A model generated the notes under the pieces. The model had not been told where the DNA came from. It made no database searches and was given only the letters and a program-made list of their open reading frames with translations. Source: an uncultured Candidatus Saccharibacteria bacterium (lineage in GTDB: Bacteria; Patescibacteriota; Minisyncoccia; Phycocordibacterales; CAIJYI01). From it: DNA of 51,466 nucleotides. Below, in pieces: positions 24,386 to 29,411 of this stretch (positions are counted from its first letter, which is position 1; every line of letters starts with the position of its first letter). The DNA lies in NCBI GenBank assembly GCA_964410165.1, contig CAYPFT010000004.1, forward strand, positions 1 to 51,466, read 5' to 3'. The translations under genes were made by a program, and so were the position numbers.

Positions 24386-26410
24386 ATGGAAATACCGAAA
24401 GAATTTCAAGAGAGAGTCAAACAGCTTCGGGCGACGATCGAGCATCATCGCTATTTGTACCATGTCTTGGATCGTCAGGAAATTTCTGATGAAGCGCTTG
24501 ATTCGCTGAAGCGTGAATTGGCGGAAATTGAGACGCGATACCCCGGACTTATTGCGCCGGACTCTCCTTCTCAGAGAGTGGCGGGAGAGCCGAATCCCGC
24601 ATTTGTCAAAGTTACGCATGCCGTTTCGCAGTGGTCGTTCAACGACGCTTTTACGGAGGAGGACATGCGGGATTTTGATGCGCGAGTGAAGCGGTTTTTG
24701 CGCGAGAAGTTCGGAGAGGTTTCCGTAGAGTACGCTTGCGAATTGAAGATAGACGGCCTCAAGGTCGTACTGACCTACGAAAAAGGGCTTTTGAAAACCG
24801 CGGCAACGCGCGGCGACGGGCAGGTGGGGGAGGATGTTACCATGAATGTGCGGACGATAGAGTCCGTCCCGCTTCGGCTTGCGACAGATGAGGATATTAT
24901 CGCCGAAGGAGAGGTGTGGCTCGGCAAAAAAGAATTGCGGCGGATAAATCAGGAACGGGAAAAAGCGGGAGAGCCGCTCTTCGCGAATCCGAGAAATGTC
25001 GCGGCCGGAAGCATTCGCCAGCTTGATCCGAAAGTGGCGGCGAGCCGCAAACTCAGTATCTTCATGTACGATATCGCGCGGTACGCGCATACTCCGGAAA
25101 CCCAAAGAGAAGAACTTGAAGAATTACGGCGCCTCGGGTTCAAGGTGAATCCGCATTTTGAGCAAGTGCGCGGAATAGACGAGGTTATTCAATTTTGGAA
25201 GAAATGGAAGAAAAAAAGCAAGCGCGAGGATTATTGGATTGACGGCGTAGTGGTAAAAGTGAACGAACGAAAATATCAAGAAGAGCTCGGATACACGGGG
25301 AAGGCTCCGCGCTTTGCGATTGCTTTCAAATTTCCGGCGGAGCAAGTTACCACGGTGGTGGAAGATATAGCGCTTCAGGTCGGGCGTACGGGAGTTCTTA
25401 CGCCGGTGGCGCATTTGCGTCCTGTATCGGTTGCGGGCTCGACGGTTTCGCGCGCCACTCTCCATAATGAAGACGAGATCAAGCGCCTTGACGTACGCAT
25501 CGGTGACACGGTTATTCTGCAGAAAGCGGGCGACGTTATTCCGGATATCGTGTCGGTTATGAAAGAGATGCGCACAGGGAAAGAGAAGCCGTACAAATTT
25601 CCGAACGCCGTGCCCGCGTGCGGAGGCGATGGGCGGATAGAGCGCATACATGGCGAGGCGGCGTGGCGATGCGTGAATAAAAATTCTTTTGAACAGCAGA
25701 AACGAAAATTCCACCATTTTGCCTCGAAGCACGCTTTTGATATCGAGCATCTGGGGCCGAAAAACATCGATGTGCTTTTGGAGAACGGGCTTATTGTAAA
25801 TTTTGACGATATTTTTTCACTTACAAAAGGAGACGTGCTTTCATTGCCGCGATTTGCGGAAAAATCGGCGGATAATCTGCTTAAAGCGATAGAAGAGAAA
25901 AAGAACGTCTTGCTTTCGCGGTTCATCGTCTCGCTTTCGATCCCGAATGTCGGAGAGGAAACCGCCGAAGACATGGCGGAACATTTCGGAACGCTTGAAA
26001 GTATCGAAAAAGCGAGTATTGAAGAACTTGAAAACATTTCCGGCATCGGCGGCGTGGTGGCGCGTTCCATCTTTGATTGGTTCCGCGAAAAAGAACACGC
26101 AAAACTCGTTCGCCGGCTAGAGGAACACGTACGCATACTGCCGGCGCCGAAAAAGAAGAGGGAAGCCCTTCCGCTTGCCGGGCAGAGTTTTGTTCTCACC
26201 GGGACGCTTTCGTCAATGAGCCGCGACGAAGCGAAGAAAAAAATAAAAACTCTCGGCGGCGAGGTCGTCGGTTCGGTTTCAAAAAACACGAGCTTCGTCG
26301 TCGCGGGAGAAAACCCCGGTTCAAAATATGAGAAGGCGCAAGAACTCGGAGTGGAGGTGCTGGGCGAAGATGCGTTTTTAAGAAAAATAACTCACCTTAC
26401 GCACGACTGA
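24386..26410 (+). CDS. ligA: NAD-dependent DNA ligase
   Basis: ELKIDG, TRGDG, NPRN, DGVVVK, VGRTG, HhH, BRCT. Confidence 0.97.
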
Positions 26411-26674
26411 AAAGATTTGGCGGTGAGTCCACCACAAGAGTACTTCCATTTTCTAATCGCTTCGCTCAAGAAAATTAGGTCGCTCCTCTTGGAGGTCTCA
26501 CCGCAAAATCTCTCTGACTTTCGGTATCGGTTTTTGGCGGTTCCACCGCCAAGAGGCGCGACCTAAATTTTAACGACCGCAGGGAGTATAAAATTGGAAG
26601 TACCCGTGTGGCAGAGAAACCGACCAAAAACCGATGCCGGGAACGTACGTTACCGTAACCGTGAATAAGGTGAG
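26391..26674 (+). mobile_element. Miniature inverted-repeat element, long form
   Basis: TIR CTCACCTTACGCACG / CGTGAATAAGGTGAG; 8-bp flanking direct repeat AAAAATAA (26383-26390, 26675-26682). Confidence 0.85.
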
Positions 26675-26718
26675 AAAAATAAGTTTGAAAAACCTTTGAA
26701 ATAGGGTATTATGGACAT

Positions 26719-27006
26719 ATGATAACCAAAGAAGACATCCAAAATCTCGCGGAACTCGCCCGTATTGAGGTTGAAGAAGGAGAGGTGGAGCGTTTCCGTT
26801 CAAGCATTGAGGACATACTGGGGTATGTTTCCGAGATAGGCGCGGTATCCGGTGAAGAAGCGTCAAAAACAGCTCTGTCGGCCGATCTCAGGAATGTCTT
26901 CCGCGAAGATGGCGAACCGCACGAATCGGGGCGGTACACCGAAGGTGTTTTGGCAAACGCTCCGGACAAGGAAGGGGGGTATTTGAAAGTAAAAAAGATT
27001 TTGTAA
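26719..27006 (+). CDS. gatC: Asp/Glu-tRNA amidotransferase subunit C
   Basis: LAELARI, NVFRED, ANAP; precedes gatA. Confidence 0.92.
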   Translation: MITKEDIQNLAELARIEVEEGEVERFRSSIEDILGYVSEIGAVSGEEASKTALSADLRNVFREDGEPHESGRYTEGVLANAPDKEGGYLKVKKIL

Positions 27007-27050
27007 TCGTGAAAAACACAAATTGATTGATTAGCGTGCTTTGTAATTTT

Positions 27051-28472: not shown

Positions 28473-28584
28473 GTTATAACCACAAGCGAGAAGAAAGCGA
28501 AAATTTATTTTCATTTTCTTCGAGTGCCGTGGTTGTATACTCAAAAACTTTCGCAAACCTGTGGCTTCTGAGTATATTATTATT

Positions 28585-29175
28585 ATGTTGCAAGTTCCCA
28601 CATTATTTCCTCCTTTTCCCATTGATCTTTCCCCGATTTTTACCGTCCTGGTCAAGATGATAAAAGACCCAAGCGTTTTTTGGCATTTAATGTCAACAAG
28701 CCAGACTTTTATGACAATCCAAGTTTTTCTTTTGTTCATAAGCGCCATCCTTTTTATCGGCATCGCTTTTGTAGTGAAAAAAATAAATGAAACGAATGGA
28801 AAAGTAAACGCGAAACGAAAAAGCGATGCTCTGGCGAAGCGGGAGCAGTATGCGGGCGTAAAGTCCAAGCGTTTCGATACGGCGCAAAAGTACATCGAAA
28901 GCGATAATCCCTCCGAGTGGCGTCTCGCCATCATTGAGGCCGACGCGCTTCTTGAGGAAATGGTGAAGAAAATGGGGTATGAAGGAACGACACTCGGCGA
29001 AATGATGAAGAACATCGAACGCTCCGACTTCACGACGATAGATGAGGCGTGGGAAGCGCACAAAGTGAGAAATCAAATCGCGCACCATGGTTCGTCTTTT
29101 TCTCTCACGAAACGGGAAGCGAAGCGGATTATGCAAATGTATGAAAAAGTTTTTCGCGAGTTCGGTATCATTTAG
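28585..29175 (+). CDS. Single-TM hypothetical protein with HEPN-like RxxxxH motif
   Basis: TM; LAIIEAD..LGE..AHKVRNQIAH. Confidence 0.7.
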   Translation: MLQVPTLFPPFPIDLSPIFTVLVKMIKDPSVFWHLMSTSQTFMTIQVFLLFISAILFIGIAFVVKKINETNGKVNAKRKSDALAKREQYAGVKSKRFDTAQKYIESDNPSEWRLAIIEADALLEEMVKKMGYEGTTLGEMMKNIERSDFTTIDEAWEAHKVRNQIAHHGSSFSLTKREAKRIMQMYEKVFREFGII

Positions 29176-29178
29176 TTA

Positions 29179-29353
29179 CTCACCTTACGCACGACTGGAA
29201 AGATTTGGCGGTGAGTCCTCCTCTTTGGAGGTCTCACCGCCAAATCTCCCGCTTCCGATGCTGAACTTTGGCGGTTCCACCGCCAAGAGGCGGAGAAACC
29301 GACCAAAATTCCTCGCCGAAACCGTATGGCGGTGTAATCATGCGTAAGGTGAG
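29179..29353 (+). mobile_element. Miniature inverted-repeat element, short form
   Basis: Perfect 13-bp TIR CTCACCTTACGCA; 7-bp direct repeat TTAGTTA (29172-29178, 29354-29360); colinear with 26391-26674. Confidence 0.85.
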
Positions 29354-29411
29354 TTAGTTATCCACAGAATTCGTTTTGACCATGTAAAAGTTCGGGGTAT
29401 CATATAAGAGT

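Follow-up and report, generated by a model that had tools for sequence, protein, structure and literature searches.

Probable orphan MITEs with the ends of ISAba11-like insertion sequences, bearing nested hairpin modules, in a Candidatus Saccharibacteria genome

Introduction

Short repeats with nested hairpins lie beside the stop codons of several genes in a contig from an uncultured Candidatus Saccharibacteria bacterium (assembly GCA_964410165.1, contig CAYPFT010000004.1). This raises two questions: What are these repeats, and how could they have multiplied in a genome in which no enzyme for moving them has been found? The stretch of DNA analyzed here, referred to below as the window, is the whole of this contig (C4, 51,466 nucleotides). 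The assembly comprises 60 contigs and 1.27 Mb, is 96.9% complete, and has a G+C content of 47%. An original prediction, made from the letters of the window alone, had described five copies of the repeat family. We find that the repeats are very probably a family of MITEs (miniature inverted-repeat transposable elements) carrying the ends of ISAba11-like insertion sequences (ISs) of the IS701 family. Their long forms contain additional hairpin modules, for which we propose, more tentatively, an independent mobility.

Results

Two end types with distinct target duplications

BLAST searches with the five window copies as queries returned 93 genomic intervals. Complete copies were defined by the pairing of terminal motifs, which yielded 62 pairs. 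The single distant pair, whose ends are 2412 nt apart with 2 mismatches each, was treated as chance, rejected as a full-length parent and dropped; the copy at 7430, whose left end is 3 mismatches from the motif, was included manually. The resulting 62 complete copies in the 1.27-Mb genome are 46–285 nt long, with length classes of about 123, 175, 227 and 284 nt. Truncated and complete copies together account for 1.07% of the assembly (13,612 bases), and 40 of the 120 contig ends, both window ends among them, fall within a copy.

The copies carry one of two types of end, T1 (CTCACCTTACGCA) or T2 (TAGGACTTACGCA), which share the inner 8 nt, CTTACGCA, and differ in the outer 5 nt. To each type belongs a characteristic target duplication. 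The 17 T1 copies scored are flanked by duplications of 7 bp (13 copies) or 8 bp (2 copies), with none in the remaining 2, while the 43 T2 copies have duplications of 5 bp (22 copies), 6 bp (1 copy) or fewer (20 copies). Both types prefer AT-rich targets: TNANTNA for T1 (88% A+T), and a sequence close to TTWAA for T2 (85% A+T). The T2 type covers a 175-nt scaffold, described below, plus at least four small subfamilies (122–134 nt) with unrelated interiors and ∼25 nt in common at each end. Three T2 copies have identical interiors, which we take as a sign of recent activity.

Two controls show that the distribution of terminal repeats is not due to chance. Matches to the terminal 13-mers with at most one mismatch number 110 and 46 genome-wide, compared with 2 and 2 for reversed-pattern controls. 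When the right flank was shifted by 20 nt, the flanks were identical in only 1 of 62 copies (5-mers) and in 0 of 62 (7-mers). The length of the duplication, 5 bp versus 7 bp (rarely 8), marks two sister lineages. The "variable target duplications" of the original prediction are thus real insofar as the lengths do differ, but they do not vary within one family: each lineage has its own length and its own matching full-length IS.

Full-length insertion sequences with the same ends

Autonomous elements with both types of end were found outside this genome. Among species-representative genomes, at least 119 stretches contain an exact match to the T2 18-mer TAGGACTTACGCAYTTGG. The matches listed include Chloroflexota, Cyanobacteria, Myxococcota, several groups of the Candidate Phyla Radiation (CPR), Methanotrichaceae, Methanosarcina, Methanoregula and other archaea; among them, MITE-sized pairs or lone ends are the majority, and full T2-ended elements of 1086–1122 bp occur at four distinct loci (L109, L070, L110 and L055, the L055 pair recurring in L056). 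In the CPR genomes among the listed T2-end loci, taken with 2.5-kb flanks, we observed MITE-sized copies only, without transposase.

The full-length T2 element at L109 is flanked on both sides by the 5-bp duplication TAAGA and encodes a 333-aa transposase that matches the NCBIfam profile NF049921 (IS701 family) at E 2.7e-118, matches Pfam DDE_5 and DDE_Tnp_1 as well, and is 36.8% identical to ISAba11-family transposases of Acinetobacter plasmids. The ISAba11 group was reportedly defined by Rieck et al. in 2012. A copy of ISAba11 on an Acinetobacter plasmid (L170) has TAGGACTTACGCA... ends that are the same as T2 at 13 of 13 nt, with a 5-bp duplication, AAAGA. The T2 copies are therefore like ISAba11 in their termini and in their 5-bp duplications at AT-rich targets. 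Unlike ISAba11, the MITE copies measure 122–285 nt and lack a transposase; T1 copies depart from it further in their outer 5 nt and in having duplications of 7 bp, rarely 8 bp.

The T1 end CTCACCTTACGCACGA matched at least 121 metagenome stretches, many of them by chance. In 11 of the metagenome loci listed, the first T1 end is joined by a second at a distance of 1126–1174 nt, and some further loci hold 145-nt MITEs; 7-bp duplications (e.g. TAACTCA, TAAGTTA, TTATTCA) are found around both the MITEs and the long elements. The full-length T1 element at L244 is flanked by TAACTCA and encodes a transposase of 335 aa that is matched by NF049921 (E 2.2e-101) and is 28% identical to the T2-type transposase. 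The T1 14-mer hardly occurs in the phylum outside this genus, with 1–2 matches, about chance level, in 3 of 400 other genomes. Each MITE lineage matches its own full-length IS701-family element, both in its ends and in the length of its duplication. Whether the family might be one already described was a concern of the original prediction, and in part it is: the ISAba11-like parent group is known, but for the MITEs themselves we found no description. Among the papers listed, our literature search found none for CPR genomes, nor the T2 end string in print, and the passages of PMC9771954 that deal with IS701 and ISAba11 name no ISAba11-derived MITE.

The ends and duplications suggest how the copies would be made. 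A DDE transposase of the IS701 family would bind the 14–18-nt terminal inverted repeats and make staggered cuts in an AT-rich target, and gap repair would then leave the flanking duplications: 5 bp at targets near TTWAA for TAGGACTTACGCA ends, and 7 bp, occasionally 8, near TNANTNA for CTCACCTTACGCA ends.

Observations that weigh against transposition by such an enzyme

Several observations weigh against this reading. In a profile search with NF049921, no match exceeded the cut-off in this genome, in 6 congeners or in a sample of 100 genomes from the class, and the best tblastn match of the two cognate transposases was at only E 0.35. Many T2 copies must be taken as old or rearranged, because 20 of 43 lack a clean 5-bp duplication. 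One scaffold also bears two end types. Public contigs from four groundwater runs over 25800–29800 end at both elements there, with none bridging them, and thus reveal neither a filled nor an empty variant as proof of current mobility. Finally, compensatory changes at four internal hairpin pairs, seen over 20 copies, could mean that structure is selected beyond transposition.

That the window has no transposase had been noted before, and this extends to the rest of the genome, where we found no cognate enzyme either. Self-BLAST of the genome revealed no IS-sized multi-copy repeat in assembled form; the assembly is broken at repeats. Because a cognate transposase was found neither in the assembly nor in the relatives searched, we infer that the elements are mobilized in trans, by an enzyme that could be unassembled, unbinned, lost or foreign. 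The earlier description of a non-autonomous inverted-repeat family requiring mobilization in trans is supported.

One candidate, a 42-bit NF049921 match on contig C56 (L173), was rejected: it belongs to an unrelated IS4-like element with different ends, CCACGCGTGTCCCGTTTAA. This element (722–2061, ∼1.34 kb) encodes a 391-aa transposase, and beside it, at 595–740, lies a 146-nt derivative with the same CCACGCGTGTCCCGTTTAA ends. The contig has runs of N and may not be this organism's.

The window copies and their position relative to genes

All five window copies lie where they had been placed, with target duplications of 8, 7 and 5 bp that we checked in the sequence. The longest is a 284-nt T1 MITE at 26391–26674 (+ strand), which consists of the 175-nt scaffold plus two modules, M1 and M2. 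Its ends are CTCACCTTACGCA and TGAATAAGGTGAG, the right end being degenerate at 2 positions, and it lies between 8-bp duplications, AAAAATAA, at 26383–26390 and 26675–26682; it is one of the two T1 copies with a duplication of this length. It is inserted in the final codons of a ligA-like open reading frame (ORF), 24386–26410. A 175-nt T1 MITE with a perfect 13-nt terminal inverted repeat lies at 29179–29353 (+ strand), between 7-bp duplications, TTAGTTA, at 29172–29178 and 29354–29360; the left duplication includes the TAG stop of ORF 28561–29175. Its two hairpins, P1 and P2, lie at about 29201–29247 and 29265–29310. The third complete copy is a 134-nt T2 MITE at 7430–7563 (+ strand), whose ends are CAGGACTTATGCG and the inverse of CAGGACTTATGCG. 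It is flanked by CGTAA at 7425–7429, which includes the TAA stop of ORF 6281–7429, and at 7564–7568, and is one of 7 genomic copies (122–134 nt) that form a small subfamily whose interior differs.

The remaining two are T2 MITEs cut by the contig ends. The one at 1–82 (− strand) retains a terminus plus portions of hairpin P1 and of a module, whose sequence is borne by bases 1–33; the other copy is at 51412–51466 (+ strand). Both had been recognized correctly as copies, but their bounds (1–88 and 51406–51466) included 6 flanking bases.

All five window copies are near a stop codon, at measured distances of 0–31 nt, as had been stated. Does this hold for the family as a whole? Based on crude ORF calls, gene context could be scored for 57 of the 62 copies: a stop codon lies within 30 nt of 30 of these, and the start of the longest ORF within 30 nt of 19. 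Of the 36 copies located in tandem spacers, 24 are closer to the stop. Genome-wide, the proximity to stop codons is a mild bias, a weak trend, and the proposed location "at gene 3′ ends" is not borne out beyond it, with 10 of 57 copies lying between divergent starts. The nearness that does exist is attributable to targets rich in TAA-like triplets, together with the removal of insertions that disrupt a gene or a promoter.

The same data bear on the possibility that these elements are primarily structured non-coding RNAs, or structures of 3′ untranslated regions or terminators with a host function, and that their repetition is secondary. We consider this very unlikely. The DNA fold of the 284-nt copy is indeed very stable (−63.3 kcal/mol, z −7.5, with 0 of 200 shuffles as stable), and the four compensatory internal base pairs, the stops beside all window copies and about half of the genomic ones, and the promoter-like sites of downstream genes just past both window copies are all as such a function would have it. 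However, the elements have target duplications and ends identical to those of ISs, and large copies in tandem contexts occur in both orientations relative to the genes (7 same, 13 opposite), which leaves the suggested co-option as 3′-UTR structures without support. Also against it, the proportion of copies between divergent starts is close to the share of such spacers genome-wide (184 of 1090), congeners differ in occupancy, and an Rfam covariance search placed no family at gathering score on the elements, finding up to E 1 only sub-threshold look-alikes of miRNA precursors.

A shared scaffold and its recombination

The interior of the MITEs is unrelated to IS DNA beyond about 14–27 nt at the ends. 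The scaffold folds into a terminal stem and two nested GC-rich hairpins, P1 and P2, which are in inverted orientation and joined by linkers; as a unit, P1 is paralogous to the reverse of P2. Hairpins like P1 are also found alone, here and in four congeners. The same scaffold occurs with either T1 or T2 ends. We built a tree from 34 interiors after removal of ends and modules (4 aberrant ones among the 38 copies of at least 150 nt were omitted). Because this tree demands at least three changes of end type, and because two hybrid copies are present, we conclude that the copies recombine.

Hairpins within hairpins

The long copies differ from the scaffold by discrete additional hairpins, as the original prediction had proposed. 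Pairwise alignment of the 284-nt with the 175-nt copy sets the boundaries of the two modules in the window. M1 (26430–26482, + strand, 53 nt) occupies the apical loop of hairpin P1, with the junction ...GAGTC^ ... ^CTCC..., while M2 (26559–26613, − strand, 55 nt) is inverted and occupies the equivalent site of hairpin P2 (− strand reading ...TTCTC^ ... ^CGCC...). This alignment confirms the two extra modules, and M1 and M2 are inverted relatives of one another.

Module M is a separate unit, a 53–56-nt hairpin. In pairs of copies that otherwise differ by 0–2 bases, it is a precise indel of 53 or 56 nt with ...GAGTC on one side and C(G/T)CC on the other, and neither flank is duplicated. The site in P2 corresponds to that in P1 on the opposite strand, and in the hairpin loops it reads TC^C[G/T]CC. 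Two variants of M are seen at the P1 site and a third variant, of 55 nt, at the equivalent P2 site. CGC or CTC follows M in 37 of 42 copies examined. Of the 36 copies of M in the genome, P sites account for 26; among the other 10, 4 are solitary, 2 are arranged in tandem and 4 belong to another repeat family. M is present 10 times in the closest congener, compared with 0 in controls, and is absent from four other congeners; at 2 loci of this sister species, one M is nested in the loop of a second. A search for left arms that lack a right arm close by revealed no gene-carrying M: it yielded copies interrupted by a contig end, a single truncated copy, and noise.

A head-to-tail tandem array of M with a 55-nt period (at least two full units and one partial) is found on contig C8 at 24847–24955. 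The other repeat family (GCCGACCGTCGTGCCTCCTCC...CTTTAGAGGG) bears M between its own hairpins at C1:82420, C13:29511, C16:603, C52:3092 and C31:14583, and pieces of it are present in the window at 550–583 and 42611–42644.

Could the length classes have arisen from an ancestral 284-nt element by deletion and gene conversion alone, with no insertion of modules? The mosaic of end types and interiors (at least three label changes, two hybrids) means that recombination does occur, and the 20–40-nt homologous flanks around the module site could transfer the presence or absence of M; gene conversion can thus spread M between copies. It cannot explain the solitary sites, because conversion is unable to put a module into unrelated DNA, and 10 of the 36 copies are outside P hairpins, those that stand alone having unrelated flanks. 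The module sites also hold unrelated variants, two at P1 and a third at the equivalent P2, in scaffolds that differ by 0–2 bases, and M is nested within M at the two loci of the sister species. An origin by deletion and conversion alone is therefore unlikely, and growth of the long copies by the gain of modules is supported by the variants at equivalent sites and by the solitary copies of M elsewhere.

We tentatively propose that M is an independent, non-coding mobile hairpin, of a type for which we found no description, that enters the loops of other repeated hairpins, those of M included, at TC^C(G/T)C without duplication, so that nested hairpins are built stepwise; within the MITEs, M would be added at one fixed hairpin-loop site. 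The insertion may be the work of an enzyme that acts on single-stranded DNA, such as one of this genome's five Y1/RAYT-like proteins.

This raises the question of whether the whole elements are palindromes of the type of repetitive extragenic palindromes (REPs) or bacterial interspersed mosaic elements (BIMEs), spread through single-stranded DNA by the genome's Y1 (RAYT/IS200-like) transposases rather than by a DDE enzyme. Such an origin would be in keeping with the five Y1_Tnp matches, with an interior made of GC-rich hairpins that are also found alone, and with the duplication-free addition of M. However, REP/RAYT and IS200/IS605-type mobility produces no target duplication and does not need terminal inverted repeats, and the elements have both, matching those of DDE insertion sequences. 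Moreover, it is another palindrome, GGGGTCAGACCCC, that flanks the Y1 genes, which have no P or M sequences beside them. For the whole elements we therefore regard this origin as highly improbable, and keep it as a candidate for module M and the hairpin units alone.

The five Y1_Tnp matches lie on C5:87–700, C14:19226–20062 and C19:19935–20168. The GGGGTCAGACCCC palindromes flank those on C5 and C14, and the same palindrome is found inside the derivative element on C56.

Abundant hairpin repeats of another kind, NTS/SRM, are cut by Ssn GIY-YIG nucleases (PMC11893778). Identity with these was rejected: the published SRM motif has 6 matches in the genome, compared with 3–9 in shuffles, and 0 inside the elements.

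Site occupancy in related genomes

Gene order is conserved across the genus. Between ligA and gatC, the spacer that holds the 284-nt element is 308 nt long here, compared with about 55 nt in each of 2 congeners. Two congeners have a short, empty spacer behind the ORF204 orthologue, and in the closest congener this spacer contains a different, T2-type MITE of 124 nt at nearly the same position. At both window sites, the congener spacers without an element are too diverged to reveal a single target copy.

Upstream, the gatA–ORF204 spacer contains another hairpin repeat at 28474–28545 (AACCACAAGCGAG...GTGGTT), with 10 genomic BLAST matches, 5 of them at 98–100% identity. Its left arm resembles the left arm of module M, and in the closest congener this spacer holds an M nested within another M instead.

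Other features of the window

A LOOT RNA (Rfam RF03000) at 14755–14894 scores 55.1 bits against a gathering threshold of 46.4 and lies immediately upstream of ORF 14841–16880, whose start it overlaps. A 425-nt direct repeat (12719–13142 and 20007–20424, about 88% identity) and a 1.3-kb match of 9749–11043 to contig C9 (87.5%) look like duplicated genes, not mobile elements. At 42747–42790 there is a perfect 44-nt palindrome with 22-nt arms and no spacer.

Discussion

The repeats of this genome are abundant orphan MITEs, ordinary selfish DNA, and unusually many for so small a genome. How do they compare with known systems? A close counterpart is Nezha, a MITE of Anabaena and Nostoc that is described as sharing its ends with ISNpu3, an IS absent from its host genomes, so that Nezha is an orphan too (PMC3184786). 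Like Nezha and the classical MITEs (Correia, RUP, ERIC), the elements described here are small and non-coding, target AT-rich DNA, and have inverted ends, direct repeats and stable folds. Unlike Nezha, as far as its description allows comparison, they have two end types on one scaffold, make up ∼1% of a 1.27-Mb genome, and contain nested modules.

Optional modules and stepwise length classes are also a feature of the BIMEs of E. coli, of BOX elements in pneumococcus, and of long ERIC variants with internal inserts. Unlike BIME and BOX elements, which lack the inverted ends and target duplications typical of a transposase, the modules here sit inside a true MITE. The loops of REP hairpins are the targets of IS1397 and ISKpn1, kilobase-sized insertion sequences with a transposase gene of their own and with short duplications. 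Like these, M enters the loop of a repeated hairpin; unlike them, it is 53–56 nt long, non-coding and free of duplications.

For this organism, the family has visible consequences: it accounts for a third of the contig breaks in the assembly, and it reshapes the ends of genes, as in the case of the ligA-like ORF, which now terminates within a copy. It also poses a puzzle: with ∼100 copies, fresh-looking duplications, and no cognate transposase in 107 related genomes, where does the enzyme originate? The setting for this question is a tiny host cell that is itself probably attached to a host. The two sister IS701-type lineages, with ends that differ only in the outer 5 bases and staggers of 5 and 7 bp, form a natural pair for asking what determines the length of the duplication made by a DDE transposase. 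Module M, in turn, offers a tractable case of repeat growth by the placement of one hairpin within another.

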